From: an uncultured Actinomycetota bacterium | GTDB taxonomy: Bacteria; Actinomycetota; Humimicrobiia; Humimicrobiales; Humimicrobiaceae | Length of the DNA: 64,000 nt | Direction of reading: 5' to 3' | Assembly (NCBI GenBank): GCA_964603595.1 | Contig: CAZRVN010000003.1 | Span: 71,603 to 135,602 of the forward strand | Part shown: positions 2,014 through 62,803 of the stretch, piece after piece | How positions within the stretch are numbered: position 1 is the stretch's first letter | Layout: each line of letters starts with the position of its first letter | Made by a program: the position numbers and the translations under genes | Notes under the pieces: model-generated | Seen by the model: the letters and a program-made list of their open reading frames with translations, nothing else | Databases searched by the model: none | What the model was told of the DNA's origin: nothing

Positions 2014-2017
2014 TTCT

Positions 2018-31346: not shown

Positions 31347-32324
31347 ATGGAAGCTTCAATAATAGTGACTTACAGGTGCAATTTTAAATGTTATATGTGC
31401 AAAATATGGAAATATCCTACAAGTGTTGAGGAAGAGTTTAAACCTGAGCTACTGGATAGGCTCCCGGAGCTTGATTTTTGCAATATAACAGGTGGTGAGC
31501 CCTTTTTAAGGGATGATATAAGCGAAATTGTAGGGATTCTTAAGCAGAAGTCCAGGAGAATAGTTATCAGCACAAATGGTTATTTTACCGAACGTATTAT
31601 AGAGGTTGTAAAAAATAATAAAGATATTGGAATAAGAATAAGCATAGAGGGCTTGCCCAAAATCAATGATAGGTTGAGAGGGGTGAGGGATAGCTTTGAC
31701 CATGGACTGCGTACATTATTAAACCTTAAAAAAATGGGACTGAAAGATATAGGATTCGGGATAACAGTATCTGACAGGAATGCTGAAGACATGCTTGAAT
31801 TATATGACCTGGCAAGGTTTTTAGGTGTGGAGTTTGCTACTGCAGCAGTGCATAATGGATACTATTTTCATTCTTATAATAATAAAATCAGGGACAGGCA
31901 AAAAGTAATTGATAGTTTTAAAAAATTAATTTTTGAGTTATTAAAATCAAAAAGGCCGAAGGACTGGTTTAGAGCTTATTTTAACTATGGTCTTATAAAT
32001 TATATAAGAGGTAAAAAAAGATTGCTTCCATGTGAAGCGGGAACGGAAAATTTCTTTATGGACCCCTGGGGAGAAATAAGGCCGTGCAATGCAATGGAGG
32101 ATAAATTCTGGTTTGAAAGCATGGGAAATTTAAAAGAAAAAAAATTTAATGAAATCTGGAACAGCAAAAAAGCAGAGGAAATAAGAGAAGAGGTTAAAAA
32201 CTGCCCAAAAAACTGCTGGATGATTGGAACAGCAGCACCGGTAATGAAAAAATATATTAAGATACCTTTAAAATGGGTTATAGACGCTAAATTTTTAAAA
32301 AAGATTAAGGTGGAGGACCTATAA
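31347..32324 (+). CDS. radical SAM enzyme with C-terminal Cys-rich auxiliary (SPASM/twitch-like) domain
   Basis: N-terminal CNFKCYMC is the CxxxCxxC motif. C-terminal Cys residues at 229, 247, 286 and 290 (…LLPCEAG…RPCNAM…NCPKNCWMIG). 325 aa. Confidence 0.8.
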   Translation: MEASIIVTYRCNFKCYMCKIWKYPTSVEEEFKPELLDRLPELDFCNITGGEPFLRDDISEIVGILKQKSRRIVISTNGYFTERIIEVVKNNKDIGIRISIEGLPKINDRLRGVRDSFDHGLRTLLNLKKMGLKDIGFGITVSDRNAEDMLELYDLARFLGVEFATAAVHNGYYFHSYNNKIRDRQKVIDSFKKLIFELLKSKRPKDWFRAYFNYGLINYIRGKKRLLPCEAGTENFFMDPWGEIRPCNAMEDKFWFESMGNLKEKKFNEIWNSKKAEEIREEVKNCPKNCWMIGTAAPVMKKYIKIPLKWVIDAKFLKKIKVEDL

Positions 32325-37774: not shown

Positions 37775-38635
37775 ATGAATAAAAATAACAAGGGAAATAG
37801 CTCAAAAAATTCAATAAAAATAAGGGACCTGATATTAATATTTGTAAAGAGAAAATGGTTTTTTATAATTTTTTTTATGGCAGTTCTTGTAGCAGGATTA
37901 CTTTTTACTTTTATTAAGACTCCACAGTATGAAACATACTCTGTTCTGAAATTAAAAGGTGTGTATTATGATGAAAATCTTTATAAGTATTTCCCCGGGG
38001 AAGCCAGTGAGCTGGGGTTTTTTGCCCCGGAGATGGATGTAAAAGAATTAGAAGGCTCGGTGCTCAAGGGCATCGCTGAAGGTATCCGGGATGACGGCTT
38101 ATTGGAAGAGGTATCGGGCAGGCTGGATTTTGAGATAAGTAAAGAGGAACTCGGACAGATAGTAAGCATACTTACGGATAGCGGTAATAAAGTGGTAAGA
38201 GTTACAACAACTTATGATAACGCAGATGAGGTATATCAGATAAATAATACTTTAATCAGTGTATATCTGGAAAGCAATAGAAATAAGAAATCAGAGATAG
38301 CGGATGATGTTATCCTTGAGATTAATAATAAGGTAGCCGCGTTGCAGGGCAAGTGCGAGGAAAGCAATGCCGGGAATGAGCTTTCAGGTGATACTGATGC
38401 CGGGCCGGATTCGGCTGAAAGCATAATTGATGACCTGAATAAAATAAAATATAACCTGGAAAGCAATAGGGAAACTTACATTAATAATGTGGGGATGCAG
38501 GAAGAACCTTTTATCCCCTCAGAAGCTATGAATATGGACATTTTAAAAAGTCTCTTAGTTGCTGTTTTTGCAGCAGTAGCAGCCGGTCTTATAGCGGTAT
38601 ATTTGCCCGGTGTTTTTAATTCATTCAGGGAATAA
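37775..38635 (+). CDS. Wzz-like polysaccharide chain-length determinant (PCP family)
   Basis: N-terminal TM followed by the PQYETYSV motif, a coiled extracytoplasmic domain and a C-terminal TM. Confidence 0.6.
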   Translation: MNKNNKGNSSKNSIKIRDLILIFVKRKWFFIIFFMAVLVAGLLFTFIKTPQYETYSVLKLKGVYYDENLYKYFPGEASELGFFAPEMDVKELEGSVLKGIAEGIRDDGLLEEVSGRLDFEISKEELGQIVSILTDSGNKVVRVTTTYDNADEVYQINNTLISVYLESNRNKKSEIADDVILEINNKVAALQGKCEESNAGNELSGDTDAGPDSAESIIDDLNKIKYNLESNRETYINNVGMQEEPFIPSEAMNMDILKSLLVAVFAAVAAGLIAVYLPGVFNSFRE

Positions 38636-44725: not shown

Positions 44726-45844
44726 ATGATATCAGTTTTCGGTTCCAAGGTCGGGAAGGAAGAGATTGAAGAAATAAGGACCAGTATAGAAAATCAGTGG
44801 ATTGGTATTGGGCCAAAAACAAAATTATTTGAAGAAAAATTTGCAAAGAGGCTGGAACTTAAGGATTTTGTGATGCTTGATAGCGGCTCTAACAGCATAT
44901 ATCTGGCAATGAAATTACTTGACCTTCCTGCCGGTTCCGAAGTTATATTGCCTACCCTTACCTGGATTTCCTGTGCTACAGCGATAATACTTAATAACTG
45001 CAAGCCGGTATTTGTGGATGTGGATTTTGATTCCCAGAATATTACGGCAGAAACAATTGAGCCGGCAATAACAGATAAAACCAGGGCTATAATGGTGGTT
45101 CACTATGGAGGTAAACCGGTAAAGTTAGATAAAATTATGGAGATGGGTTTTCCTGTTATAGAGGATGCAGCCCATGCAGTTGATTCAAAAATAGGAGGCA
45201 GGTACTGCGGCTCTATAGGGGATATAGGTATTTATAGCTTTGATGGAGTTAAGAACCTGGCAATAGGTGAGGCAGGAGGCCTGACCTCCGGAAATATTGA
45301 GATAATGAAAAAAGCAAGGGCACTGAGATACTGTGGTATTGAAAAGTCAGGGTTTGAGGCCTCTGTGACAAAAAAAAGATGGTGGGAATATAATGTTGTG
45401 GATTTTTTCCCCAAAATGATTCCTGATGATATAAGTGCTTCTATTGGACTGGCACAACTAAAAAAATTGGACGGTCACCAGAAGTATAGAAAATATATGT
45501 GGGATATATACCAGGAGGAATTCAGCAGGGTAGGATGGTTGGAAACACCTCTGAATGCGGAAGAAAATGAGACTCATTCCTATTTCACTTATTTTCTTAG
45601 ATTGAATAATGATAAGAGAGATGAACTTGCCCATTACATGTATGAAAAAGGCATATATACTACCTTGAGGTATCAGCCGCTTCATATGATACCAATTTAT
45701 AACTCAACTCATCTAAAGTTAAAGAATTCCGAGCTACTAAACGAGGTTGGTTTAAATATACCTCTGCATCCGAATTTAAGTCAGGATGATATTGAATATG
45801 TCGTAAAGACAATCAAAGAGTTTGGTAAAAAAAATAATTTATAA
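44726..45844 (+). CDS. DegT/DnrJ/EryC1/StrS-family PLP-dependent sugar aminotransferase
   Basis: 372 aa. …VIEDAAHAV…DIGIYSFDGVKNLAIGEAGGL… carries the PLP-lysine motif. Confidence 0.85.
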   Translation: MISVFGSKVGKEEIEEIRTSIENQWIGIGPKTKLFEEKFAKRLELKDFVMLDSGSNSIYLAMKLLDLPAGSEVILPTLTWISCATAIILNNCKPVFVDVDFDSQNITAETIEPAITDKTRAIMVVHYGGKPVKLDKIMEMGFPVIEDAAHAVDSKIGGRYCGSIGDIGIYSFDGVKNLAIGEAGGLTSGNIEIMKKARALRYCGIEKSGFEASVTKKRWWEYNVVDFFPKMIPDDISASIGLAQLKKLDGHQKYRKYMWDIYQEEFSRVGWLETPLNAEENETHSYFTYFLRLNNDKRDELAHYMYEKGIYTTLRYQPLHMIPIYNSTHLKLKNSELLNEVGLNIPLHPNLSQDDIEYVVKTIKEFGKKNNL

Positions 45845-47312: not shown

Positions 47313-48632
47313 ATGAAAAATACTTGTCTATCAGGCAATAAGCTTATTTCTATTTCTTTAAAATATTTTATTATTTTGATTGCCGTAGTTTTTTTAATTG
47401 GCTATTTTTCTATATCACCCGGCGGGTATCATATCTACAGGGGTGAACAAATCCCGATTATAACCGGGGATGGGTATGGCTATTATTTTTATCTTCCATA
47501 TTATTTAATAAACTACAGAGATATACATTTTGAAAGGCTTTTAAGCCCTTCCGAGTTTGAGCAATTCTGGGATCATTACCAGGTGGGCGAGTCCATTATG
47601 ATTCTGCCCTTCTTTATGATAGGGCACTTATTATCAATTATTTTTAAATATCCTCTGGATGGGCACTCTTTTATTTATCAGCATGCTGCCGGACTATCGG
47701 GTCTATTTTATGCAGTAGCTGGAATTTATGTATTAAAAAAAGTCCTGGAGAGATATTTTTCTAAAAAAGTAACACTAATTACTTTACTGGCAATAATATT
47801 TGGTACCAATCTATATCATTACGGGACGCTTGGCAGTTTATTAAGCCATTCTTTTTCTTTTTTCTTATGTTCTCTGATTATTTACCTCATCCCCTTATGG
47901 TTTGAAAATCCCGGGTCAAAAAAGATAACTTTAATTCTTGGCATTGTGGCAGGATTGGTAATGGTGGTCAGATTGCCCAACATACTTATACTATTGTTTT
48001 TATTATTCTATAGGGTTCACAGCACAGGAGATTTAAAAAAAAGATTTATCTTTTTCTGGCACAACTATAAAAGCATTTTACTAATTGCCATTGTGATAGC
48101 TGTTATTTTTATACCGCAAATAATAACCTGGAAATTAACTTTCAATCAATGGCTGGTTTATTCATACGGAGAAGCAAAATTCCATTTTGACCAGTTGTAT
48201 ATAGCGAGTGTCCTTTTTTCTATCAGGAGAGGGCTTCTGTTCTGGTCTCCAATTCTCTGTTTTGCAATAGCTGGCTTCTGGTTTATGAGAGAAAAAATGA
48301 ATGATTATTTTACAGCTTCCCTTTTATTTATTCCTTTGATTATTTTTATAAATTCAAGTTTTGCCAGGTGGTGGTTTGGTTCGTCTTTCGGTCATAGAGG
48401 TTTTACAGAGTTTTTACCGGTATTTGCACTGGCAACTGCAGCGTTTTATTCATCATTAAAGAATAAGAGAATTAAAATAATCATTTATATATTAACTACT
48501 GTATTTATCGTTTATTCTATATTACAGATGATTCTCTGGTGGAAGGGGTGGGTACCGCATGATTTAGTGACATTATTATCATATAGAGAATTTTTTATGA
48601 GAATATGTTCTTTCTTGAAATCCATTATGTAA
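47313..48632 (+). CDS. polytopic membrane protein, possible GT-C-like glycosyltransferase
   Basis: 439 aa, about 10-11 TMs. First loop contains ITGDGYGYYFYLPYY. No characterised family recognised. Confidence 0.3.
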   Translation: MKNTCLSGNKLISISLKYFIILIAVVFLIGYFSISPGGYHIYRGEQIPIITGDGYGYYFYLPYYLINYRDIHFERLLSPSEFEQFWDHYQVGESIMILPFFMIGHLLSIIFKYPLDGHSFIYQHAAGLSGLFYAVAGIYVLKKVLERYFSKKVTLITLLAIIFGTNLYHYGTLGSLLSHSFSFFLCSLIIYLIPLWFENPGSKKITLILGIVAGLVMVVRLPNILILLFLLFYRVHSTGDLKKRFIFFWHNYKSILLIAIVIAVIFIPQIITWKLTFNQWLVYSYGEAKFHFDQLYIASVLFSIRRGLLFWSPILCFAIAGFWFMREKMNDYFTASLLFIPLIIFINSSFARWWFGSSFGHRGFTEFLPVFALATAAFYSSLKNKRIKIIIYILTTVFIVYSILQMILWWKGWVPHDLVTLLSYREFFMRICSFLKSIM

Positions 48633-48661: not shown

Positions 48662-49537
48662 ATGAACAGGATGAAAAATAAAATATTAAACTTAATAGTA
48701 ATTATATCAACATTAATTTTGTGTATTTTTATACAATATGTTTTATATTTCCTGGATAAATCAATCTATCTGGGTAGTTTTTTGATGCTGATAGTAAGTG
48801 TCTTCTTTGTTTATATAGGTTTTTTTGATAAAGAGTTATTGATTTTAGATGGACTATTTATTATAGTCTGTCCTCTTTTGTTTATATTTAGTAAATTTGA
48901 TTTTTCTAATTATATCGCATTAAATCTAATTACCCTTTCTTTTCTGGCTGTGGCTATTTATTTATTAAAGGAAAAATTAATTTCGGGCTACCATAGATCA
49001 GGAAAAATTAATTTTAAGAAAAAGATTGGATATACCCTGGCTTGCCTGGGAATACTTTTTATTGTTTTATCTGTATTTAATAATCGGGAGGAAACAGCAA
49101 ATGCATTGCTTAAGTTCTTTCAGCCGGAAAAATATTATAAAGAAATAGATAAAGTAGAGTTAAATGGAGTTGAATATACAAATGAAATAAAAGTTGTTAT
49201 TAATAAACCGGAAAGCGGTGACAGCGTAAGTGGATTATTTGAACTGAAGGGCTGGGCAGCGGATTTGAGTGATATAGAAGATGCCTCCATAGATAAGATA
49301 TATGTATTTCTGAATAGTAAGCCGCAGGATGGAGGTATTTTTCTTGAGAGGGTTGATACCAAGATACGAAGGGAAGATATAGCTGAAGAATATGGTGAAA
49401 AATATAAAGATGCCGGGTATTATATGGTAATTAACTCCCGGAGACTTAAAGATGGGTTAAATAAAATTTATGTTTATGTGCATAGCAATTATTCTGGATG
49501 GGGATATGCTAAAGTAGAAGTTTATGTAAATAATTAG
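48662..49537 (+). CDS. membrane protein with C-terminal extracytoplasmic beta-rich domain (paralogue of the 57384-58733 C-terminal domain)
   Basis: About five N-terminal TMs, then a ~125-aa domain (…GLFELKGWAADLSDIEDASIDKIYVFLNSKP…RREDIAEEYGEKYKDAGYYMVINSRRLKDGLNKIYVYVHSNYSGWGYAKVEVYVNN). Confidence 0.4.
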   Translation: MNRMKNKILNLIVIISTLILCIFIQYVLYFLDKSIYLGSFLMLIVSVFFVYIGFFDKELLILDGLFIIVCPLLFIFSKFDFSNYIALNLITLSFLAVAIYLLKEKLISGYHRSGKINFKKKIGYTLACLGILFIVLSVFNNREETANALLKFFQPEKYYKEIDKVELNGVEYTNEIKVVINKPESGDSVSGLFELKGWAADLSDIEDASIDKIYVFLNSKPQDGGIFLERVDTKIRREDIAEEYGEKYKDAGYYMVINSRRLKDGLNKIYVYVHSNYSGWGYAKVEVYVNN

Positions 49538-49561
49538 AAGAAAAATAGCTTATATTTTATT

Positions 49562-50287
49562 TCAGCCTTCTTTCTTTAATACAATTATCATTGACATCTC
49601 TATTTTCTTAAACAATATATATTTTTCAAAGATTTTTAATAAAGGAACTAATTTGTTATATAAACTTAAAAATTTTTCATTGATAACGCTTCTCCTCAGG
49701 ATAAAACCGTTTAAAATCCATCCAAAAATTGCCGTAAAATTAAAATAATGTGATTCTATTAATTTAAATTCTGTATTTTTTAATATCCTGTCTATATCTT
49801 TTTTATTATATCTTCTCAGGTGGCCAACGCTTTTATCAATAATATTATACAGGTATTTATGGGCAGGAATCAGAAGGATAAGGTTTCCATTTGCGTTTAA
49901 GACATTATGTATATTCTGTATGACTTTAATATCATCTTTAATATGTTCTAAAACATTAATTGCAATGCATGTGTCAATATGAAAGTTACCGTCTGAAGAA
50001 TTCTTTATATTCTCCAGGTTAAAGTTTTCAACATAAACATTTTTAAAAGTTTTGTATCTGGATGATAATTTTTCCACGAAGGTTTCGTCAATATCAGATA
50101 AAATAACGCTGTTATTCCCGTTCTGGCTGATCAAGATTTTAGAAAAGCTGCCCAGACCCGAACCGATTTCAAGTACATCACCCTTTATAAAGGGCTTTAT
50201 TTCTTCATATATCCAGTCATAGAACCTGTTTGCTCTTTCTGAAAAAATCAGCTGGTTGTCTTTGCCTTCCGGTGAATATTCACTCAT
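49562..50287 (-). CDS. class I SAM-dependent methyltransferase
   Basis: VLEIGSGLGSFS motif I and VLEHIKD motif. 241 aa. Transcribed divergently from the ATP-grasp gene. Confidence 0.75.
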   Translation of the reverse strand: MSEYSPEGKDNQLIFSERANRFYDWIYEEIKPFIKGDVLEIGSGLGSFSKILISQNGNNSVILSDIDETFVEKLSSRYKTFKNVYVENFNLENIKNSSDGNFHIDTCIAINVLEHIKDDIKVIQNIHNVLNANGNLILLIPAHKYLYNIIDKSVGHLRRYNKKDIDRILKNTEFKLIESHYFNFTAIFGWILNGFILRRSVINEKFLSLYNKLVPLLKIFEKYILFKKIEMSMIIVLKKEG

Positions 50288-50726
50288 TTTTTTTAATTTA
50301 AATTAATTCTATATATTTTTACTTAAAATGGGCCTTAAATTCCTTGAGCCGATTTATTAATAAATAGATTTCTATCATTTTACCATTGTTTTTTGGTTTC
50401 ACAATAGAACTAATAAATTTTCGGAAAGATATTTTTATATAAAAAAATATATATAATATTTTATTGTGGCGGCAGCTAGTGATAGAATTTATAATATTAT
50501 TTTATTGCTAAATCAGGAAAAGTATCCGCGCCTGAATGAAAAAATGGATGCTTCTCATATTGCGGATTGCTGTTTTGGTTTTAAGCGAGGTTTTTTAATC
50601 TAAAGAGCTGATTTTACCTGCTTGTATATAATTATTTACCTTAGTTTTTAAAGGTTTAGTTTAATATTAATGCAGTAAGTGGCTATAATAGTAAGTATTA
50701 TGAATAGTTAGTTTATAAATAATTTA

Positions 50727-51878
50727 ATGGAATCTAAAAAAGTACTTATACTTGGGGTTACCCACCCCCAGATTGATGCGATATTATACTGCAGGAGAAT
50801 GGGATATGAAGTCCATGGCTTGAGTTATCACCGTGAAGGTATGGGTATACCTTATCTTGATTTTTTTGACAGGATTGATATAGCAGATAAAGATGGGGTT
50901 TTGGATTATGCCAGAGAGAATAAAGTAGACCTGATTTATTCAACCGGTTCGGATGTCGCTTTACCAACTGTTGCTTATGTGTCCAAAAAATTGAGTTTGC
51001 CCCGGGATATAACCTGTGACCAGGCAATGCTTTTAATTGATAAAAGCAACTTTAGAAGTTTTGCCCTTAAAAATGGCTTGAGCCCTGTTAAATTTAAAGT
51101 GGTTGAAAAACCAGGTGATTTTGAGGACTGGGATTATTTTCCAGCAATAATAAAGCCGGTTGACAGTCAGGGACAGCGGGGAGTCAGGAAGGTAGATAAC
51201 AGAAGGGAGATTGAAAAATATTTTCCCGTTGCCTTAGGGGAATCATTTAGCAAAAAGATAATAATCGAAGAATTTTTAGAGGGTAAGGAAATTAATATTT
51301 TAATATATATGTATAACGGGGAAGCCAGGTATAGTTTTGTAATTGACCGTGTACTGGTGGAAGAAACCATACCAGGGGGATATTCTGCCGGCATGCCGGT
51401 TGGTGTGGTAAAAAAACATATAGTTCCATCTTTTATACCGGAAGAGGACCAGAAAAAGATACGGAGGATTGCAGTTGAATTTATAAAGATGGCGGGCGTA
51501 AAATACGGTCCTGTTTATATACAGGGAAAATACAGGGATGGTGATTTTAAGCTTATTGAGGTTGCCCCAAGGTTAGATGGCGGGCATATCTGGAAAATAA
51601 TTAAATATAAATATGGTATTGATTTAATAAAAATTTGCTTTGACCGGCTCTTGGGAAAAATTAATTCAGGTGATGTATTCCCTCCAATAAGTGAAAAAGA
51701 TAATAAAAGGTATCAGATTGAATTCTTTCATCAGAAACCCGGCGAGGTTTTTAGGATACCCCCAGACTTTAAAAAAGATGAGTATCTCGAGTACAGTTTT
51801 TATTACAGGAATGGCGAAAAAGTGAAAATCTCAAATGGCCATTTTGAAAAAACCGGTTTCCGGATTACTGAAATATAA
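50727..51878 (+). CDS. ATP-grasp family ligase (carboxylate-amine ligase-like), copy 1
   Basis: Pre-ATP-grasp N-domain plus ATP-grasp core (…FPAIIKPVDSQGQRGVRKV…IIIEEFLEGKEINI…). 383 aa. Confidence 0.75.
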   Translation: MESKKVLILGVTHPQIDAILYCRRMGYEVHGLSYHREGMGIPYLDFFDRIDIADKDGVLDYARENKVDLIYSTGSDVALPTVAYVSKKLSLPRDITCDQAMLLIDKSNFRSFALKNGLSPVKFKVVEKPGDFEDWDYFPAIIKPVDSQGQRGVRKVDNRREIEKYFPVALGESFSKKIIIEEFLEGKEINILIYMYNGEARYSFVIDRVLVEETIPGGYSAGMPVGVVKKHIVPSFIPEEDQKKIRRIAVEFIKMAGVKYGPVYIQGKYRDGDFKLIEVAPRLDGGHIWKIIKYKYGIDLIKICFDRLLGKINSGDVFPPISEKDNKRYQIEFFHQKPGEVFRIPPDFKKDEYLEYSFYYRNGEKVKISNGHFEKTGFRITEI

Positions 51879-51971
51879 TATTTTTATTATAAAATTTAAA
51901 AAATATTATATAATTAAGTACTAATAAATTAATATAAAATCTAAAACTTTAAAAATAGGAGGGACTGCAAT

Positions 51972-52949
51972 ATGAAAAAATCGTTTGTTTTATTAGTTAT
52001 CGTAGCTGTATTTTCTATGTTTATATTCGGGGGTTGTGCTGGAAGTTCTCCGGAATCAAAAAAAGTAGTTGTTGCCCAGCAGTATGGCCTGGGGTATGCA
52101 CCTATTATGGTGATCCAGGAGAAAAAGCTGATTGAAAAGTATTATGAAGGTGCAGAGGTAGAGTGGGTTCAGCTTGGTTCAGGCGGTGCCATAAGAGAAG
52201 CTATGGCTGCAGGAACAGTGGATATAGGCAGTATGGGAGTCCCGCCTTTCCTTATATCATGGGATAAAGAATTGGGGTTCAGGGTTATATCGGCTCTCTG
52301 CAGGATGCCTCTTGGGCTTCAAACATACCATGAAGAGATAGAAACACTTGGTGACATAACACCTGATATGAAGATTGCCCTGCCGTCTCCGGGCAGCATC
52401 CAGCATATTCTTCTTTCTATGGCATGCGAGAAACAGCTGGGTGACCCGACTGCGCTGGATGACCAGATTATTGCCATGACTCACCCGGATGGTGCCAATG
52501 CGCTAATTAATAAAATTGAAATTGATGCCCATTATACTTCGCCGCCATATATTTTTATGGAATTAGAAACTGAAGGTATTCACCAGGTACTGGATGCAGA
52601 GGAAGACTGTTTTGAGGGACCTTTCACCTTCCTTGTAACCATAAGTACGGAAAAATTTAAGGAATCAAATCCTGAGCTTTTTACGGCAGTGGCAGATGCA
52701 CTGGATGAAGCAATTGTCTGGATAAACGAAAACCCTGATGAAGCTTCAGAGCTGCTGGCGGAAGGTATGGATATGGAAAAGGATGAAGTTTACAAACAGC
52801 TTACATGGACAGGAGTAGAATTTTCTAAAAATCCGGAAGGGATGCTTGAGTTTCTAGATTTCATGAAGGAATCTGGATATGTAGCGAAAACGACAGATGA
52901 TGTCTCCGAGCTTATCTGGGATAACCTTGATTACAAGGAAGCAAATTAA
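51972..52949 (+). CDS. ABC transporter substrate-binding lipoprotein, NMT1/SsuA/TauA-like (NitT/TauT family)
   Basis: Lipoprotein signal ending FGGC. Type-II periplasmic binding fold resembling sulfonate/nitrate/taurine binding proteins. Confidence 0.7.
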   Translation: MKKSFVLLVIVAVFSMFIFGGCAGSSPESKKVVVAQQYGLGYAPIMVIQEKKLIEKYYEGAEVEWVQLGSGGAIREAMAAGTVDIGSMGVPPFLISWDKELGFRVISALCRMPLGLQTYHEEIETLGDITPDMKIALPSPGSIQHILLSMACEKQLGDPTALDDQIIAMTHPDGANALINKIEIDAHYTSPPYIFMELETEGIHQVLDAEEDCFEGPFTFLVTISTEKFKESNPELFTAVADALDEAIVWINENPDEASELLAEGMDMEKDEVYKQLTWTGVEFSKNPEGMLEFLDFMKESGYVAKTTDDVSELIWDNLDYKEAN

Positions 52950-52977
52950 TATATAAGTAAAAGTAAAAAAGATAAAT

Positions 52978-53811
52978 ATGAAAGAAATAAATCCGGATTA
53001 TAAAAACCATAGTAAAATACGGCTGGCATTATCCAGTAAAAATTTAAGGGAGCTATGGATAAAAATAGGATTTATAGTAGGTGTTATGATTATATGGGAA
53101 GTAATTGCCCGTTTTGGCAGAGTTTCTTCTACACTGTTCCCACCGATATCTACTATTGGCATAGCCCTGTGGGATAATATTATAACAGGGGAGATTCTGG
53201 AGCATCTTTTATATTCGCTTTACCTTATTTTTATAGGAATAGGCATAGGGATTGTGCTAACCTTTATCCTGACTGTGCTTTATATGATCTATAAACCATT
53301 TGCGAATATACTGGATATAGTTATATCTATTATGCACCCCCTGCCAGGAATTGCGCTGCTGCCTATTATTATGTTGATAGTCGGTCTGGGGGCTAAGGCC
53401 ATAGTAATAGTAATTATACAGTCTGTAATATGGCCTGTTATGGTTAATTCAATTGCAGGATTCCGGTCTATACCAATTACCCAGGTAGAGTTGGGAAGAA
53501 ATATCGGTATGTCTGAATTACGGCTGGTATGTTCCGTTATGATTCCAAATGCTTTTCCACATATTTTTGCAGGTTTAAAGATTGCATGGTCAAGGAGCTG
53601 GAGAGCACTTATTGGTGCAGAAATGATTTTCGGCGCCACCGGGCTGGTAGGAGGACTTGGCTGGTATATTTATAAAAAAAGATATTTTTTGGAAATACCT
53701 GATGTTTTTGCGGGGCTTCTGGTAATCGTGGCTATTGGAATTATTGTAGAAGAAGTAGTAATGAAACAAATTGAAAAGAGGACCATAGTAAAATGGGGAG
53801 TAACTGTTTGA
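52978..53811 (+). CDS. ABC transporter permease (NitT/TauT family, BPD_transp_1)
   Basis: Six TMs with an EAA-like loop (…AWSRSWRALIGAEMIF…). Confidence 0.8.
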   Translation: MKEINPDYKNHSKIRLALSSKNLRELWIKIGFIVGVMIIWEVIARFGRVSSTLFPPISTIGIALWDNIITGEILEHLLYSLYLIFIGIGIGIVLTFILTVLYMIYKPFANILDIVISIMHPLPGIALLPIIMLIVGLGAKAIVIVIIQSVIWPVMVNSIAGFRSIPITQVELGRNIGMSELRLVCSVMIPNAFPHIFAGLKIAWSRSWRALIGAEMIFGATGLVGGLGWYIYKKRYFLEIPDVFAGLLVIVAIGIIVEEVVMKQIEKRTIVKWGVTV

Positions 53812-53812
53812 A

Positions 53813-54577
53813 ATGCGTAAGGTTTTGGAAGTTGAAGGTTTAAATAAAAGCTTCAGGATGAATAAAAAGAATATTCATGTATTGAATAATATATCTTTGT
53901 CACTTATAAAAAGAGACTTTTTAACCGTACTGGGCCCTTCGGGATGCGGGAAATCAACTCTTATAAGATGTATCTGTTGTTTCGAAAAGATTGACGGCGG
54001 TGTAATTAAAGTTGATGGAATGCTGGTAACCAGGCCCGGACCTGACCGGCTAATGGTTTTTCAGGAGTTTAATCAGCTTTTTCACTGGAAAACTGTCTGG
54101 GAGAATATTATTTATCCGCTTAATTTGAATCACAGGAATAAAACAAAAAAAGAAAGAGAAGAGATTGCCAGTAAATTTCTGGAGATGGTTAATTTAAAGG
54201 ATTTTAAAAATGCTTATCCCAGGCAGCTCTCCGGAGGAATGTGCCAGAGGGTTGCCATTGCAAGGGCTCTTGCAATCGGGCCTAAGATTCTGCTGATGGA
54301 TGAACCGTTCGGCGCACTGGATGCCCAGACAAGGAGCATTCTGCAGAAAGAACTGATGGATATATGGAATAAGACAGATATAACAATTATATTTATTACC
54401 CATAATATCCAGGAATCTATCCTTCTGGGAAATAAGATAATGGTACTTTCGCGGATTCCTGCGGCTATCAAGGTATTGGTTGATAATACCATACCATTTC
54501 CAAGAATGCCGGAAACCCCTGAATTTATGGATTTATGGAAGGAGCTTTATTCTACACTGGATGTTAAGAGATTTTAA
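53813..54577 (+). CDS. ABC transporter ATP-binding protein (SsuB/TauB-like)
   Basis: Walker A GPSGCGKST, signature LSGGMCQRVAIARAL and Walker B LLMDEP. Starts 2 nt after the permease. Confidence 0.9.
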   Translation: MRKVLEVEGLNKSFRMNKKNIHVLNNISLSLIKRDFLTVLGPSGCGKSTLIRCICCFEKIDGGVIKVDGMLVTRPGPDRLMVFQEFNQLFHWKTVWENIIYPLNLNHRNKTKKEREEIASKFLEMVNLKDFKNAYPRQLSGGMCQRVAIARALAIGPKILLMDEPFGALDAQTRSILQKELMDIWNKTDITIIFITHNIQESILLGNKIMVLSRIPAAIKVLVDNTIPFPRMPETPEFMDLWKELYSTLDVKRF

Positions 54578-54652
54578 TTAATATGGATTAATTTATAAAA
54601 ATTATTATTTGATAAGCAATATGTCTTTAAAGATAAATTAAATATAAGTCTT

Positions 54653-55618
54653 TTGGTTGGGAGTCAAGAGAATAGAATGTGTGATTTAAGTATTATTGTT
54701 CCTGTTTATAATTCAGAAAAAACAATAGGTGAAGTTGCCAGGCAGATTAAGAAAGCGCTGGATAGTAAGCTTGAATTTGAATTAATAATGGTAAATGATG
54801 GAAGTGCTGATTCCAGCTATAGAAAATGCAGAGAGCTTTTAGAATCAAATAATTTTATAAAATTTATAGATCTTTCCAAGAATTTTGGTCAGCACAATGC
54901 CATACTTGCAGGCCTTGGCTTTGCCAGGGGGGAATTTATAGCTGTTATGGATGATGACCTCCAGTCTCCTCCTGATAAAATATGGAAGTTAATAAATAAA
55001 ATAAGGGAGGGGTATGATGTTGTCTATGCTAATTACATTTACAAAAAACACAATCCGTTGAGGAACCTCGGAAGTAAAATTAATGGCCTGATGGAAACAA
55101 TTTTGCTTAAAAAACCAAAGGGTATAAAAACTTCCAGTTATTTTATAATAAGGAAATATATAGCAAAAGAGGTAATTAAATATAAGGGTCCTTATCCCTA
55201 TTTGGCCGGGTTGATTTTAAGGATTACAAATAATATAGGGATTGTTAATGTCGATCATAAAGAAAGACCATACGGAAAGTCTAATTACAGTTTTATAAAG
55301 CTATTAAAATTATGGGTCAACGGGTTTACTAATTTTTCTGTAAAACCACTGAGGATAGCATTGTTTATGGGCATGTTCCTGGCTTTTGCTGGATTTGCAT
55401 TATCTATCTTTTTTATAATAAGGAAGTTTATGAATCCAGAAATAGCAATTGGTTGGACTTCAATTATTGTAGCGGTATTTTTATTTTCCGGGATTCAATT
55501 AATCTCGGTAGGTTTGATTGGGGAATATGTGGGAAGGAGTTTTTTGTCCCTAAACAAGCAGCCGCAGTATGTGATTAAAGAAAAATATAACGTAGAAGAG
55601 CAAAAAAAAATTAAATAA
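54653..55618 (+). CDS. GT2 polyprenyl-phosphate sugar synthase (GtrB/ArnC/DPM1-like) with C-terminal TM pair
   Basis: LSIIVPVYNSEKTI…LIMVNDGSADSS is the GT2 domain. Two C-terminal TMs (…ALFMGMFLAFAGFALSIFFII… and …IIVAVFLFSGIQLISVGLIGEYVGR) are typical of GtrB/ArnC. Confidence 0.8.
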   Translation: MVGSQENRMCDLSIIVPVYNSEKTIGEVARQIKKALDSKLEFELIMVNDGSADSSYRKCRELLESNNFIKFIDLSKNFGQHNAILAGLGFARGEFIAVMDDDLQSPPDKIWKLINKIREGYDVVYANYIYKKHNPLRNLGSKINGLMETILLKKPKGIKTSSYFIIRKYIAKEVIKYKGPYPYLAGLILRITNNIGIVNVDHKERPYGKSNYSFIKLLKLWVNGFTNFSVKPLRIALFMGMFLAFAGFALSIFFIIRKFMNPEIAIGWTSIIVAVFLFSGIQLISVGLIGEYVGRSFLSLNKQPQYVIKEKYNVEEQKKIK

Positions 55619-55699
55619 TAGAGATAAAATAGATGGAAATCTTCACCCTAATATGATTTTTAAATGTCTATAAGAATTATAATTACATAAGCTATAATT

Positions 55700-57403
55700 A
55701 TGACATCTACCAAAAATGATAGTTTAAAGCCAGAGAATACTGGTAAAAAACTATCAAATTTTTTTTCAAAACCAATTTATGTCTTTATCATATCTATAAT
55801 TATTAATTCGTTATTATTTGCTTTATTTTTTTGTTTTGTTACGCCAAGGTTCCGGACTAATGATGATATTGCTATGATGGAATTTGCATCGGGCAGGATA
55901 AGCGGGCAACCCGGTGAATACCTGATTTATATCAATATTATAATAGGGAAATTACTTTCGTTTTTGTATTTGAGCTTTCCGGAGATTAACTGGTATCCGG
56001 TACTTTTTTATTTTATTCATTTTTTATCAATGACAGTTATATTTTATTGCCTGCTGCTAAAGAAAAAAAATATTTACGCTGTCCCAATTTATCTTTTATT
56101 ATTTTGCTTTTTAGAACTATACATGCTTGCGAATCTGCATTTTACAACAACAGCTTTCATTGCAGGACTGGCAGGTATTATCCTATTTTTTAAATATATT
56201 GATACAAAAGGGGCAAAATTTTACACTGCAATAGCAGGAAGTATCTTACTGCTGGCAGTTTCCGGGCTTATTAGAAAAAATGTATTCTATCTGGTGCTGG
56301 GGCTGTCTGCAGGGATGCTTGCATTAAAGTTTATAAAGAGGAAATCCTGGAAAATACCGGCGATACTGGTAATTATGCTGCTGGTGTTTGGCTTATTTAA
56401 TTTAATTAATGATTATTATTACCAGAAAGACGAGGACTGGAGTTTTTACCAGGAATATAATAAGTATATTGGAAAAATTTGCGGTTACCCTGATTTTAAT
56501 TACAGTGACAGAAATAGCAACGTCTATAATAGCGTGGGCTGGAGCAAAAATGATGTTAGTATGCTCAGGTCATGGTTTTTTTGTGACCTTGAGCTGTATT
56601 CTATGGAGAAGCTTGATTATGTAGTATCCAATATTAAGGTAGACAGGGGGGCAGGAGAGGTCTTTGGAATCCTCGGAAGAGAATTTGCTAAATTAGATAT
56701 AAAAGTTAAGTGGTTTACCGGTTTTTTTCTGGCCATTGCCCTTTTGCTATCCGACAGAAAAAAGAATAAATATATTTTTTCAGTAATATTTTGTTCTTTT
56801 ATAATGTCAGTTTATCTTTCTTATACGGGAAGACTTACGGACTGGGTTTTTTCTCCAATATTCATTTTTAATTGTGTTATAGCTGCTTTTTTTATTTGTA
56901 ATGAAAATGCAGACAGGAGTTTTAAAGTATTAAACAAAACAATTTTCCGGTTAATAGTGCTGGCAATATGCCTGGTGCTTGTCATCTTTACATTTATATC
57001 AGTATCAAAATACAGCAAAATAAATGAGGTAAAGCAGCAGCAACTGGAGCAGGTAATTGAGAAATTAAAAGGAGAAGACGACAGGATATATGTGAGCTGG
57101 GGAGCTACAGGCCTCCGTGATAAAGTTATATTTTTCTCTACTGATGAGTTAAAGAATTATCCTGGTACGATACAGCTTGGCTGGAGGGTTCATACTCCTT
57201 ATTACAACAGTACACTGGAAGGATATTCCGTTGATAACATATATACAGCAATCGTTGAAAGGGATGATATCTTTATGATTTGCAGAGAAGGCGGGGTTAA
57301 TATATTTAGTACTTTTATGTCCGAGCATTACGATAGAACTGTATCGGCTTCTCTTGTTTATGAAGTGGAGGACTTTCCGGTAAATGTGTATAAATTTAAA
57401 TGA
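55700..57403 (+). CDS. polytopic membrane protein with C-terminal soluble domain, possible GT-C-like transferase
   Basis: 567 aa, about 10 TMs. First loop has the acidic motif PRFRTNDDIAMMEF. C-terminal ~150 aa are hydrophilic. Confidence 0.35.
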   Translation: MTSTKNDSLKPENTGKKLSNFFSKPIYVFIISIIINSLLFALFFCFVTPRFRTNDDIAMMEFASGRISGQPGEYLIYINIIIGKLLSFLYLSFPEINWYPVLFYFIHFLSMTVIFYCLLLKKKNIYAVPIYLLLFCFLELYMLANLHFTTTAFIAGLAGIILFFKYIDTKGAKFYTAIAGSILLLAVSGLIRKNVFYLVLGLSAGMLALKFIKRKSWKIPAILVIMLLVFGLFNLINDYYYQKDEDWSFYQEYNKYIGKICGYPDFNYSDRNSNVYNSVGWSKNDVSMLRSWFFCDLELYSMEKLDYVVSNIKVDRGAGEVFGILGREFAKLDIKVKWFTGFFLAIALLLSDRKKNKYIFSVIFCSFIMSVYLSYTGRLTDWVFSPIFIFNCVIAAFFICNENADRSFKVLNKTIFRLIVLAICLVLVIFTFISVSKYSKINEVKQQQLEQVIEKLKGEDDRIYVSWGATGLRDKVIFFSTDELKNYPGTIQLGWRVHTPYYNSTLEGYSVDNIYTAIVERDDIFMICREGGVNIFSTFMSEHYDRTVSASLVYEVEDFPVNVYKFK

Positions 57404-58733
57404 AACAGCAGCGGATTTCATGCATATTTTTAAAAAAGAAATGAATAAAAAGGATAATATTATAAGAAATATAAGAAAAAATTTTATAGGCAGGAAGTTA
57501 AAAATATCTGCTATATTTTTATTTTTTGCTTTGCTGGTTGCTTCAATTGTTCTAAAGAATTTTTTAAATGTTGAAGCCTATTATTACCCGGCTTTTTTTG
57601 TTATTTTAATCTTTTTTTTATACCTCTGTTTTGAATTCGGATATAAAATATTTATATGGTTTTCCCTTATTTTAATGTTACTGGTTTTTCTTTTTATTTT
57701 AATTGATGAAAATCCTCTGTCAGAATTATCCGGGATATATGCTTATATTTTCCTGGGCTTAGGGGTGGCCGGTCTTCTTTTAGACTATGTAAGGGAAAAA
57801 GTTAAAAAAAATAGTCTTCATTTTAAGAATTATAAATTAATTTTATTATTTATTTTAATACTGGTAGTAATATCCCCATTTATTTTATATAGAAGTTATC
57901 TGCCCCATCTACCGGGTATTATTAAAAATATAAGTTACTATTATAAAAGGGATAGTATAAAGTTAGATGGCATTGAATTATCGGAGAATATAATAATTAA
58001 TGTAGAGTATCCTGAAAAAGATGTGATACATAAAGGGATAGCTAGAATTTCCGGATGGGCGGTCGGGGGCAATTCATCGGACGGTCCCGGTATAGATGAA
58101 ATTGAAGTTTTTATTGATGGCAAGCCCGGTATAGGAAAGCGTATTAATTTAGATTCTATCACTATAGAAGAGGGCCCGCCGGCTCGTGAGCTGGTAGAAA
58201 AATTTTACAGTGGTTGCTATGGCAGTAGTCCTGATGAAGAGACACTGGATTACTGGGTTGCAGAAATAGAATCAGGCAATGCCTCTTTTGATGATATGTT
58301 TAAAGATTTTATTTTAGATGAGGAATTTAAAAATAAAAATTTAAGTGATGAGGAATACGTAAATTTGCTGTACGGGTTACTGCTGAATAGAGAAGCTGAT
58401 AAAAATGGTCTCAATTACTGGCTAAATGAATTGAATGAAGAGAAGGATAGGGATATCATATTATATGATTTCTTGAATTCATTTGAGTATAGGGGTTTAT
58501 GCAGGAGATATTATAATGATATATCTGAATATCTTGTTTATGCGAACACAGGCATTAATTTAAAAAAGGAAGATATCGGCGATGAGTATGGAGAACAATT
58601 TGAAATGAGCGGGTTTAATTTCCTGTTTGATAGCAGGGAATTTAAAAATGGAAAGCATACCCTGTATATCTATGCACATTCCCCTGAGTTTGGGTGGGAT
58701 TATGAGATGGTGGAGATAAATATCGAAAATTAA
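57384..58733 (+). CDS. membrane protein with extracytoplasmic domain split by an inserted DUF4214 module
   Basis: About five TMs. The N-half of the shared domain is …ARISGWAVGG…IDEIEVFIDGKPG…. The DUF4214-like segment (FYSGCYG…DYWV…GLNYWLNEL…) lies at ≈58175-58520. The C-half of the domain is …DIGDEYGEQFEMSGFNFLFDSREFKNGKHTLYIYAHSPEFGWDYEMVEINIEN. Confidence 0.5.
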   Translation: MCINLNETAADFMHIFKKEMNKKDNIIRNIRKNFIGRKLKISAIFLFFALLVASIVLKNFLNVEAYYYPAFFVILIFFLYLCFEFGYKIFIWFSLILMLLVFLFILIDENPLSELSGIYAYIFLGLGVAGLLLDYVREKVKKNSLHFKNYKLILLFILILVVISPFILYRSYLPHLPGIIKNISYYYKRDSIKLDGIELSENIIINVEYPEKDVIHKGIARISGWAVGGNSSDGPGIDEIEVFIDGKPGIGKRINLDSITIEEGPPARELVEKFYSGCYGSSPDEETLDYWVAEIESGNASFDDMFKDFILDEEFKNKNLSDEEYVNLLYGLLLNREADKNGLNYWLNELNEEKDRDIILYDFLNSFEYRGLCRRYYNDISEYLVYANTGINLKKEDIGDEYGEQFEMSGFNFLFDSREFKNGKHTLYIYAHSPEFGWDYEMVEINIEN

Positions 58734-59699: not shown

Positions 59700-60407
59700 A
59701 TGAAAAATATATACAGTAAAAGTTTTTTTGAAAGTAACACTGCATGGAAACTGGTTAAGAAATACGAAGTAGATAAATTAATAAGATATTCAATAGACGA
59801 CCGGAATGTGATGGAGATAGGACTTGGAAACGGCTTTACGACAGAATTATTATCAGATCATTTTCAAAAGGTTATTGCTGTTGATATCTCAGGAGGAGTG
59901 ATTGAATATGTAAAGAAAAAATTGGTTACAAGAAAGAATATTGTATATATAAATAGTCCTATTGATAAACTGGATTTTAATTTTACGGTTTATAATTTTT
60001 ATTTGGGGCACATTTTAGAGCACCTGGAATTTCCAGTAAAGTTATTGCTCAATATAAAAAAAATAATAAAAAGCGAAACTATAGGTTATATATCTGTACC
60101 AAATAGTAATTCAATACACAGACAAATAGGGGTGGAGATGGGACTGCTTGAGAGCGTGAATACCCTGAATGAAAATGATATAAAATTTGGGCACAGGAGA
60201 TTATACAATTTGAAAAAAATTAAAAATCATATAAAAAAAGCGGGATTTAATATATTAAAGATTGGCGGTTGTTTTTTAAAGACGATGACTTATGAACAGA
60301 TCAACAGGTTTTGCAGTGAAGAGCTTATAAAAGGGTTCATAGAGATAGCCGATAAGTACCCGGAAATAAGTGGAGATATTTATGCAATTGTTAAAAAAGG
60401 TAATTAA
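59700..60407 (+). CDS. class I SAM-dependent methyltransferase
   Basis: MEIGLGNGFTTE motif I and HILEHLEFP motif. 235 aa. Confidence 0.7.
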   Translation: MKNIYSKSFFESNTAWKLVKKYEVDKLIRYSIDDRNVMEIGLGNGFTTELLSDHFQKVIAVDISGGVIEYVKKKLVTRKNIVYINSPIDKLDFNFTVYNFYLGHILEHLEFPVKLLLNIKKIIKSETIGYISVPNSNSIHRQIGVEMGLLESVNTLNENDIKFGHRRLYNLKKIKNHIKKAGFNILKIGGCFLKTMTYEQINRFCSEELIKGFIEIADKYPEISGDIYAIVKKGN

Positions 60408-61590
60408 TTCTTATACAGGTAAAATTCTAATTTTAGGTGCAGGAGTTTACCAGATCCCTTTAATAAAAAAAGCAAAGGAAATGGGGCTGAAAACAATTGT
60501 TGTAAGTTGCAGGGGTAATTACCCAGGATTTAATATAGCAGATAAGAATTATTATGTAGATACGACCAGTTCTGAGGAGGTACTTGATATTGCCAGAAAA
60601 GAGCATATTAGTGGAATATGTACAACGGGCTCAGATGTGCCTATGGTGACACTGGGGAAAGTTGCTGATGAATTAAAACTGGTGGGTATTACTGAAAAAT
60701 CGGGGATTTTAAGTACCAATAAAGTAAGAATGAAGGAAAGATTTAAAAAATATAATGTGAGAGCGGCTAATTTTATGAAGGCAAGCAGTGCCAGAAACAC
60801 TAAAGAAGCAGTTAATGTTTTTAAACTGCCTGTAGTTTTTAAAGTCGTGGATAGCTCCGGCAGCAGGGGGGTATTTATTGTCAGTAAAATTAAAGAGATA
60901 GATAATATAATTAAGGCAGCGCGTTCCGAAACAAAGAAAAATTATTTCATTGTTGAGGAGTTTCTGGAAGGTAGGGAGTTTGGAGCGCAGGCACTTGTTT
61001 ATAATAATGAGGTCAAGTTTATTCTCCCTCATGGTGATTTTGTTTTCAAGGCAAATACGAATATTCCTGTGGGCCATTTTGTACCGATTAAATTGAAAAA
61101 AAATATTGTTAGAGATTTATATACACAATTAAAAAGGTCGATAAGGTCATTAGAGCTAAATAATTGCGCAATTAATGCAGACTTTATTTTAAAGGATAAT
61201 AAAGTCTTCGTCCTGGAAATTGGAGCAAGGGCAGGAGCAACCTGCCTTTCAGAACTGGTTTCTATTTATTTTGGCTTTAATTATTACCAGTTGATTATAA
61301 ATATGGCTCTGGGTAAAGAACCTGATTTTCGTTTTAGGAGAAAGCTGCCAAATGCAAGCATGCTTCTTTTTTCTAATAAGTCTGGGAATATCAGGAAGAT
61401 AATAGATAAAAATATACCTGATGAAGATATAGTCGAGATTAAGTTTGATTATGGTGTGGGGGACAGGGTTAAAAAGTTTAGGGTCGGGTCAGATAGGATA
61501 GGGCATATAATTGTTAAGGGGAATACTTTAAAAGATGCCTTAAATTTACTGAGAAAAGTTAGAAAAAATATTTTCATTCAAGTTGAATGA
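60370..61590 (+). CDS. ATP-grasp family ligase, copy 2 (paralogue of 50727-51878)
   Basis: …FKLPVVFKVVDSSGSRGVFIV…YFIVEEFLEGREFGAQ… has the same architecture as copy 1. Overlaps the upstream methyltransferase by 38 nt and the downstream aminotransferase by 8 nt. Confidence 0.75.
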   Translation: MEIFMQLLKKVINSYTGKILILGAGVYQIPLIKKAKEMGLKTIVVSCRGNYPGFNIADKNYYVDTTSSEEVLDIARKEHISGICTTGSDVPMVTLGKVADELKLVGITEKSGILSTNKVRMKERFKKYNVRAANFMKASSARNTKEAVNVFKLPVVFKVVDSSGSRGVFIVSKIKEIDNIIKAARSETKKNYFIVEEFLEGREFGAQALVYNNEVKFILPHGDFVFKANTNIPVGHFVPIKLKKNIVRDLYTQLKRSIRSLELNNCAINADFILKDNKVFVLEIGARAGATCLSELVSIYFGFNYYQLIINMALGKEPDFRFRRKLPNASMLLFSNKSGNIRKIIDKNIPDEDIVEIKFDYGVGDRVKKFRVGSDRIGHIIVKGNTLKDALNLLRKVRKNIFIQVE

Positions 61591-62803
61591 TTTTTGGTTG
61601 AAAAGCGAATTTTATAGAAATTCATTAAAGAAAGAGATTTTTAGTATGGATAATATAAATATTCCATTTAACAGGCCTTCCATACTGGGGAAGGAATTGG
61701 AGTATATAAGACAGGCGGTAGAAAGCGGGAAGATTAGCGGGGATGGGATTTTTAGCAGAAAATGTGCAGAAATGATGCATGAAAGATATGGGGTGAAAAA
61801 AGTGCTGCTGACAACATCCTGCTCGACTGCCCTGGATATGTCTTCTATTTTAATAAATATTAAACATGGAGATGAGGTTATTTTACCTTCATATACCTTT
61901 GTTTCTACGGCAAATTCGTTTTATTCAAGAGGTGCGAAATTAAAGTTCGTAGATATAAGAGAAGATACTTTAAATATTGATGAAAGTAAAATTAAAGAAG
62001 CCATAACGCCACAAACCAGAGCTATAGCAGTTGTTCATTATGCGGGGGTATCCTGTGAGATGGATAGAATTTTAAAGATTGCGAGGAAATATGATTTATA
62101 TGTTATCGAGGATGCTGCACAGGGTATCGGATCAAAGTATAAAAAAAATTACCTTGGAACCATGGGGGATATTGGATGCATGAGTTTTCATGAAACCAAA
62201 AATATTACCTGTGGAGAGGGAGGGGCAATCCTTATAAACAACAAAAAATTTTTCGAAAGAGCCGAGATTATAAGAGAGAAAGGAACTGATAGAAGTAAAT
62301 TCTTCAGGGGTGAGGTTGATAAATATACTTGGGTGGATGTCGGCTCTTCATATTTACCATCTGAGATTTTATCGGCTTTTTTATATGCACAGCTTGAAAA
62401 TATAGGGTTGATTATAAACAGCAGGAAAGAATTATGGAGATATTATTATGATAATCTTGAAGGGCTGGAAAAAGAAGGTTTTATTAGAAGGCCTATCGTC
62501 CCCCGGGATTGCAGCCATAACGGGCACCTTTTTTATATTATTGTTAATAGTGAGGTTACAAGAGACCGGCTGCTTGAATATCTTAAAAATAAGGGAATAC
62601 TTGCGATTTTCCATTATCTGCCACTGCATCTCTCATCAATGGGCAGGAGAATGGGATACAGGGAAGGCCAGCTTCCTGTTACCGAAAAAATTTCTTCACG
62701 GCTGGTCAGGCTACCACTATTTTATGGCCTAACCAGGGGCGAGCAGGATACAGTGCTCGGTAATCTGGAAGATTTTTTTAAAAATAAAAATCCGGGTTAT
62801 TAA
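61583..62803 (+). CDS. DegT-family PLP-dependent aminotransferase, WecE-like (dTDP-4-keto-6-deoxyhexose 4-aminotransferase-type)
   Basis: …VIEDAAQGIGSKY…DIGCMSFHETKNITCGEGGAILINN… is the SFHETKN-type PLP-lysine motif, as in WecE/ArnB-like enzymes. Confidence 0.85.
   Translation: MNDFWLKSEFYRNSLKKEIFSMDNINIPFNRPSILGKELEYIRQAVESGKISGDGIFSRKCAEMMHERYGVKKVLLTTSCSTALDMSSILINIKHGDEVILPSYTFVSTANSFYSRGAKLKFVDIREDTLNIDESKIKEAITPQTRAIAVVHYAGVSCEMDRILKIARKYDLYVIEDAAQGIGSKYKKNYLGTMGDIGCMSFHETKNITCGEGGAILINNKKFFERAEIIREKGTDRSKFFRGEVDKYTWVDVGSSYLPSEILSAFLYAQLENIGLIINSRKELWRYYYDNLEGLEKEGFIRRPIVPRDCSHNGHLFYIIVNSEVTRDRLLEYLKNKGILAIFHYLPLHLSSMGRRMGYREGQLPVTEKISSRLVRLPLFYGLTRGEQDTVLGNLEDFFKNKNPGY

Follow-up and report, generated by a model that had tools for sequence, protein, structure and literature searches.

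What is the domain that two small membrane proteins share within a polysaccharide locus of an uncultured Actinomycetota bacterium, why does it lie in two pieces in one of them, and what might the proteins do beside the large membrane proteins encoded immediately upstream? The locus lies on a 64,000-nucleotide stretch of contig CAZRVN010000003.1, referred to here as the window. The proteins are P1, a membrane protein of 291 amino acids (aa) encoded at 48662..49537 and described from its open reading frame (ORF) and an AlphaFold model, and P2, a membrane protein of 449 aa encoded at 57384..58733 and described from its ORF, a family alignment and an AlphaFold model. An earlier reading of the DNA, the original prediction, had named both ORFs, which are indeed found at those coordinates, on the + strand, and had proposed that the two proteins share a novel extracytoplasmic domain, interrupted in P2 by a DUF4214 insertion. 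P1 and P2 are full-length paralogues, and P2 is a domain-within-domain protein in which a double DUF4214 cassette is nested in a loop of a predicted immunoglobulin (Ig) sandwich. The host domain belongs, as one of its divergent members, to the Pfam Big_7 (PF17957) Ig-like family.

The relationship between the two proteins is apparent from BLASTP with composition adjustment, which returned two collinear high-scoring segment pairs (HSPs), one matching P1 residues 158-224 with P2 residues 185-251 (E 1e-8) and the other matching P1 residues ~235-291 with P2 residues 393-449 (E 1e-13). Once residues 258-387 are removed from P2, a single HSP of 134 columns with 0 gaps and 32% identity spans the domain (E 4e-27), and the local alignment score of the P1 and P2 domains is 235, compared with 33 +/- 6 in 2000 shuffles (z = 34). 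The predicted paralogy and common domain are thus borne out by the spliced alignment, whose significance survives composition-adjusted statistics. The similarity had been placed in the C-terminal part of both proteins, where it does lie, but it is not confined there: a MAFFT joint alignment of the two families extends through the transmembrane (TM) region and includes an (R/K)EK motif conserved between them after the fourth helix. The start of P2 is a separate matter. Its longest ORF opens at 57384 and overlaps the upstream gene, whose stop lies at 57403, by 20 nt; GGAGG stands 11 nt upstream of this start, and homologues of P2 begin at the equivalent of Met20 (57441). Judged by these features the true start is ambiguous, and Met20 at 57441 may be the correct one.

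In P1 the Ig-like (Big_7-type) domain is contiguous, occupying aa 158-291 (49133..49534, + strand) and covering positions 1-130 of the domain profile. The same profile is met in two instalments in P2, also on the + strand: an N-terminal half at aa 185-257 (57936..58154; profile positions 1-73; local hmmsearch i-E 2.1e-25) and a C-terminal half at aa 388-449 (58545..58730; profile positions 69-130; i-E 2.7e-29). The tandem DUF4214 cassette, delimited with Pfam and AlphaFold, fills aa 258-387 between them (58155..58544, + strand). The insertion had been predicted at ~115 aa; its presence is upheld and its length is corrected to ~130 aa. Pfam DUF4214 (PF13946), whose cut-off is 23.2 bits, matches whole P2 at 69.9 bits (E 1.9e-19) and the excised insert with E 3.4e-21; two repeats are distinguished, a marginal one at aa 269-318 (22.5 bits) and a clear one at aa 308-371 (64 bits). 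AlphaFold models the insert as eight helices between residues 266 and 387 at a predicted local distance difference test score (pLDDT) of 90-95, and Foldseek places phycobilisome-linker PF00427 domains at the top of its matches (3nph, TMt 0.59, E 0.01). This linker-like match agrees with the PBS_linker_poly match of one family member (E 4.9e-5) and with the CATH assignment of DUF4214 quoted in a preprint (bioRxiv 10.64898/2026.09.02.748959).

The insertion point falls in the loop that joins the strand '...GKPGIGKRINL' to the segment '(T)GINLKKEDIGDEYG'. On either side of it the AlphaFold models of the two proteins can be laid over one another element by element: in the N-terminal half, P1 strands 164-167, 170-173, 176-182, 192-201 and 210-217 have their counterparts, offset by +27, in P2 strands 191-194, 197-200, 203-209, 219-228 and 239-244, and in the C-terminal half the P1 helix 238-244 and the strands 252-258, 265-275 and 279-289 correspond, at an offset of +158, to the P2 helix 396-402 and the strands 410-416, 423-433 and 437-447. 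Both halves of the P2 domain have pLDDT values of 80-95 and, in these models, are predicted to retain the secondary-structure elements and the register of the uninterrupted domain. The structural check suggested with the original prediction therefore gave an equal order of strands and helices in the two proteins with the DUF4214 helices between the halves, the models having P1-family alignment input in common. The halves are collinear with an uninterrupted homologue, the same cassette occurs C-terminally in other proteins, and the insertion is kept in 13/13 full-length P2 relatives and in 16 proteins overall.

The identity of the host domain emerges from both structure and profile searches. 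The P1 domain is modelled at pLDDT 88-95, and Ig-like/E-set sandwiches top its Foldseek matches in the PDB, among them the Ig domain of mannanase 6tn6, the C-terminal domain of sulfite oxidase, 9kvu (TMt 0.78), superoxide reductase (SOR) and CopC. An exhaustive HMMER search with a domain profile in which P2 was entered as two separate halves retrieved 2323 cluster representatives at E<=1e-3, and 914 remain when the threshold is tightened to E<=1e-10. Most of the hits carry 2-8 tandem copies per large protein, in regions where Pfam places Big_7 (PF17957, "Bacterial Ig domain") and which are accompanied in these proteins by Amidase_3, Glucosaminidase, Peptidase_S8, FG-GAP and NHL domains. Among repeats sampled from different profile hits, 20/24 match Big_7 (best E 3e-11), and hhalign aligns the P1/P2 profile with the sampled repeats over 125 columns at a probability of 99.95% (E 7.6e-38). 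Direct matches to Big_7 are weak, being found in 10/23 members of the P1 and P2 families with a best E of 6e-4; P1 and P2 themselves give no Big_7 match in Pfam at E<=1, and P1 has no Pfam match at all. It is because they fall below the Pfam threshold themselves that they are described as divergent members. The shared domain belongs to a large named family and therefore represents neither a new fold nor a new family; its description as novel is refuted by the 2323 representatives, the 20/24 repeats and the hhalign result, and the profile search proposed for glycan loci led mostly to tandem repeats in amidases, S8 peptidases and proteins like them. PDB sequence searches with the P1 domain and with the Big_7-like repeat profile returned nothing significant, the best being 8c4d (E 0.017), an entry rejected as a structural reference since its C-terminal domain is missing from the crystal (PMC10167349).

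The subfamily of Big_7 closest to the P1/P2 domain has the pattern '...GWA...G(T)G(I/V)D...V...DG...YG..R.DV...(Y)G..F..SG(F/Y)...G.H.L.VYAHS..GW'. What P1 and P2 have in common with Big_7 proteins at large is an Ig-like beta-sandwich carried by an extracytoplasmic envelope protein. They differ in that their domain is single and borne on a five-TM anchor, whereas elsewhere it forms tandem arrays on secreted enzymes, and in that the P2 copy bears a nested insertion of 130 aa, which no other architecture in the best 150 hits possesses.

Among the best 150 of the 2323 profile hits, the split form is thus restricted to the P2 family, where it was found in 16 proteins, down to 32% identity. A word-indexed search returned 10 close relatives of P1 and 13 full-length relatives of P2, every one of the latter with the insert, and the identical P2 protein is present on three contigs from independent sources. 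In a scan of species-representative genomes, P2-type genes occurred in three metagenome-assembled genomes (MAGs) only, all of uncultured Actinomycetota, and two gammaproteobacterial matches in that scan proved to be ordinary Big_7-like repeats. As judged from these sequences, the nested form is a conserved, lineage-specific family of uncultured Actinomycetota.

Natural variants show that the ectodomain can change. One member of the P2 clade that the exhaustive search retrieved, P0062 (297 aa), is without the DUF4214 cassette, the gap falling precisely at the junction. Its identity to P0021, which bears the insert, is 52% across the anchor and N-terminal half (E 3e-85) and 49% across the C-terminal half; it aligns with P1 from end to end at 30% identity (E 4e-29), and a neighbour-joining tree puts it amid sequences that have the insert. 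Its sequence identifies it as a natural excision or pre-insertion variant, and because the cassette is cleanly missing from it, the host domain tolerates both its presence and its absence. Two further proteins, P0046 and P0064, combine a P2-like membrane anchor with two tandem uninterrupted Ig domains, an architecture from which it follows that the anchor-plus-Ig family varies its ectodomain in several ways.

The anchor itself comprises about five TM helices in both proteins, as had been predicted and as AlphaFold models and hydropathy agree. In P1 it occupies aa 1-141 (48662..49084, + strand), with AlphaFold helices at residues 2-30, 35-52, 56-75, 79-101 and 116-140; overall the P1 model (mean pLDDT 80.5) consists of helices across residues 2-153 followed by the beta-sandwich, and the P2 model has a mean pLDDT of 79.9. 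Lysine and arginine are abundant at the N-terminus and in the loop that leads into the last TM helix (residues 102-119 in P1), and for this reason the N-terminus is placed inside the cell and the C-terminal domain outside it.

The genes that precede P1 and P2 are of particular relevance to function. Directly upstream of P1 lies a polytopic membrane protein of 439 aa (47313..48632, + strand), which matches NCBIfam NF047440, the LA_3751/LA_3752 putative glycosyltransferase family, with E 1.3e-10 at 40.7 bits, below the cut-off of 200. Directly upstream of P2 lies one of 567 aa (55700..57403, + strand), which together with ten relatives forms an orphan family that sequence searches of Pfam, NCBIfam and the PDB did not connect to any other; weak matches to DUF6057 and DUF4131 were judged to be noise. 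This gene is preceded in turn by one for a 321-aa GT2 glycosyltransferase (54653..55618, + strand; Glycos_transf_2 E 5.7e-31), which heads a cassette of GT2, membrane protein and P2. The window was compared with the related loci L001, L002, L003, L004/5, L006, L008 and L012. The pair of the 439-aa protein and P1 recurs in L001, L003, L004/5 and L006, the triplet of GT2, 567-aa protein and P2 recurs in L001 and L003, and the order GT2, membrane protein, P2 is also seen in L008. In the loci examined, the gene directly upstream of every P1- or P2-type gene encodes a large polytopic membrane protein, though not always the same one: in L008, where the P2 relative has 45% identity, it is an 892-aa GT-C_AftD protein (47 bits, cut-off 26). 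In L002, whose P2 relative has 32% identity, a 705-aa PMT_2/DUF2142 protein (PMT_2 33.3 bits, cut-off 26.1) with a Laminin_G_3 lectin domain takes this place, and the called end of its gene and the start of the P2-type gene share the same base, 8001. No relationship between the 439-aa and 567-aa proteins, or between the 567-aa protein and the L002 GT-C protein, is detectable by BLAST. The original prediction had set P1 and P2 next to GT-C-like proteins, which holds for these two P2 relatives (GT-C_AftD in L008 and PMT_2 in L002); the neighbours in the window itself are sub-threshold or matchless.

The DUF4214 cassette is also found attached to membrane proteins without an Ig host. In L012, P0188 (8001-10013) is a homologue of the 567-aa protein with 44% identity that itself bears the cassette as a C-terminal fusion, and its 18-kilobase (kb) locus holds no P2-type gene; it is a Rosetta-stone link between this membrane protein family and DUF4214. 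A profile of the P2 insert further detects the same cassette at the C-terminus of ~830-aa proteins with >=12 hydrophobic segments (L001 16164-18671; L006 4156-6642; L003 1803-4277 and 11325-13820), in which Pfam matches nothing else. An equivalent gene may lie just past the window end at 64000.

The reading that we favour, at a probability of roughly one half, makes P1 and P2 accessory subunits of the polytopic membrane proteins encoded immediately upstream, facing outward and putatively binding polysaccharide. The TM anchor of P1 or P2 would dock beside the upstream enzyme, probably an extracytoplasmic glycosyltransferase and of GT-C type in at least two related loci, and the Ig domain, in P2 together with the displayed DUF4214 cassette, would bind nascent or acceptor surface polysaccharide. 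The bound polymer could then be held or positioned during its modification, for which the donor would be a polyprenyl-phosphate sugar made by the GT2 whose gene opens the cassette. This reading is suggested by the conservation of adjacency across different upstream families, by the two DUF4214 fusion architectures (P0188 and the ~830-aa proteins), by the company that the Ig repeat keeps elsewhere with cell-envelope enzymes, and by the report that Psh, an RTX-DUF4214 protein of Pseudomonas putida, binds the O-antigen of lipopolysaccharide (LPS) (bioRxiv 10.64898/2026.09.02.748959). Of the two roles first guessed for the domain, glycan binding is plausible, and chain termination found no support in the analysis.

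Several points weigh against this assignment. Ligand binding and a physical complex with the upstream protein are both things that we infer. GT-C identity is not demonstrable for the two upstream proteins in the window itself, of which the 439-aa one is sub-threshold and the 567-aa one an orphan. The upstream partners of P2 relatives are non-homologous by BLAST, so that what these relatives are associated with is a class of membrane proteins and no single family. The common fold of P1 and P2 is not an independent result, because P1-family sequences were part of the alignment from which P2 was modelled. Ig-like domains are, in general, frequently mere spacers and not binders. O-antigen binding by DUF4214, finally, is described in one preprint for a distant protein and would apply to P2 by analogy.

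Some of these points are shared by the strongest competing explanation, in which P1 and P2 act on their own as membrane-tethered Ig-like anchors or spacers of the envelope. They would bind peptidoglycan, an S-layer or finished polysaccharide and so keep it at the cell surface, without working together with the membrane proteins next to them, adjacency reflecting nothing beyond a shared glycan or envelope operon. This explanation accommodates the lack of a single homologous family among the upstream partners, the occurrence of DUF4214 in many secreted and surface proteins, and the presence of the same Ig repeat on cell-wall hydrolases and proteases, where its role is most plausibly wall targeting. 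It sits less comfortably with an immediate downstream position held across 32-100% identity and different upstream families, with the 20-nt overlap of the P2 ORF and the abutting genes of L002, and with the direct fusion of the cassette to such membrane proteins elsewhere; it is considered possible, though clearly less probable than the accessory-subunit reading. A second explanation makes the five-helix TM domain the functional part, acting as a flippase or carrier of polyprenyl-phosphate sugar in the manner of GtrA or GacK, with the ectodomain as an auxiliary. The order GT2, polytopic membrane protein, P2 does resemble GtrB/GtrC-type cassettes, no GtrA-like gene was seen among the Pfam-scanned ORFs around P2, and the TM region is conserved between the two families, including the R/K-E-K motif after TM4. 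A transport role is nonetheless disfavoured, because none of 23 family members shows similarity to GtrA, Wzz, Wzx/MurJ or any transporter in Pfam or NCBIfam, for GtrA, Wzx/MurJ and transporters even at E<=1, and because the locus already has a MurJ/Wzx-type flippase of its own; few polar residues are conserved within the TM helices in the joint alignment, and P1 has no GT2 directly upstream, so that this explanation is regarded as unlikely. That AT-rich sequence of 29-34% GC and low-complexity membrane regions inflated the similarity by chance, or that P2 is a mis-assembled or chimeric ORF, is refuted by the composition-adjusted E of 4e-27 and the shuffle z of 34, the identical protein on three independent-source contigs and the architecture's recurrence in 16 proteins at down to 32% identity.

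Known systems offer partial parallels to the accessory-subunit reading. With Psh and DUF4214 proteins in general, P2 has in common a clear Pfam match, a PF00427-like helical fold and a surface-glycan context. The domain is terminal in Psh and in most proteins, whereas a tandem pair sits inside another domain in P2, and Psh is type I secreted, whereas P2 is membrane-anchored and its glycan binding putative. Mycobacterial EmbC and AftD are GT-C glycosyltransferases with built-in extracytoplasmic carbohydrate-binding domains, and the combination of a polytopic membrane enzyme with an outward beta-sandwich or lectin module in a cell-envelope glycan locus recalls them, as it does the PMT_2 protein with Laminin_G_3 in L002; in contrast to these enzymes, which have the module fused, the putative binding module here comes as a small membrane protein in its own right, and the GT-C identity of the window partners is unproven. 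Three-component glycan-modification cassettes such as GtrA/GtrB/GtrC, CsbB/YfhO and GacI/GacJ/GacL, in which GacJ is a small membrane accessory, show the same order of GT2, large polytopic membrane protein and small membrane protein within a polysaccharide locus. P1 and P2, however, have no sequence similarity to GtrA or GacJ and possess a large ectodomain. Assignment to a Gtr-type three-component system was rejected, as a GT2 is present but P1, P2 and their neighbours give no GtrA-family match. Assignment to the Wzz or polysaccharide co-polymerase class was likewise set aside, P1 and P2 having no PF02706 match and combining five TM helices with a beta-sandwich where that class has two TM helices and a periplasmic coiled coil.

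P1 and P2 are thus an undescribed, lineage-restricted family assembled from known parts, with a clean nested-domain architecture. As a natural nested domain P2 comes with controls at hand, namely the insert-less P0062 and the uninterrupted paralogue P1. The genomic evidence, which consists of conserved adjacency and two independent fusion architectures, links the widespread DUF4214 with the outward side of polytopic membrane proteins encoded in glycan loci, and taken together with the O-antigen report it yields a testable hypothesis for DUF4214 and polymer recognition by GT-C-like enzymes in uncultured Actinomycetota. A bolder version, which we hold only tentatively, would make P1 and P2 an undescribed class of dedicated membrane-anchored acceptor-glycan-binding subunits, serving the GT-C-type envelope glycosyltransferases of uncultured Actinomycetota, with DUF4214 as a portable glycan-recognition cassette placed at either of two positions. 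If this were true, the enzyme's own C-terminus and a loop in its partner's Ig domain would be interchangeable sites for the cassette, DUF4214 would gain a general biochemical role, and GT-C enzymes would gain a new kind of specificity subunit.

The surroundings of the two genes conform to the predicted glycan locus. A single + strand polysaccharide locus of Wzx/Wzy type extends from ~23.8 kb to the window end and contains genes for a UDP-glucose dehydrogenase, a dehydratase/epimerase, the MurJ/Wzx-type flippase, several GT4 glycosyltransferases and an initiating Bac_transf transferase, as well as Wzz (a Wzz-domain gene at 37775-38635), GT2 genes, Wzy, GNAT, DegT aminotransferases, a flavin adenine dinucleotide (FAD) oxidoreductase, ATP-grasp ligases and many methyltransferases. 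Around P1 and P2 there are two ATP-grasp ligases (50727-51878 and 60370-61590) and two DegT aminotransferases (44726-45844 and 61583-62803), and five class-I methyltransferases are likewise spread around the P1 and P2 modules, which suggests two partly duplicated sugar-decoration modules in the locus.

An NMT1/THI5-type ATP-binding cassette (ABC) importer, comprising binding protein, permease and ATPase, lies inside the polysaccharide locus at window positions 51972-54577 and recurs beside the same membrane-protein genes in L001 (4521-7125) and L012 (3676-6247). It may supply substrate to the nearby glycan-decorating ATP-grasp ligases. The importer stretch has the highest GC content in the window, 0.40 against ~0.33. 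Elsewhere in the locus, a radical-SAM/SPASM enzyme stands among the GT4 genes (window 31347-32324), and a 562-aa ORF without a Pfam or NCBIfam match (36011-37699) lies between a nucleotidyl-transferase gene and the Wzz-domain gene. The GC content of the window as a whole is low, at 29-40%, though the only relatives that bear a name are labelled Actinomycetota MAGs. Almost all long ORFs of the window are on the + strand, and across positions 1-64000 the GC skew is positive in all 2-kb bins except 2001-4000.

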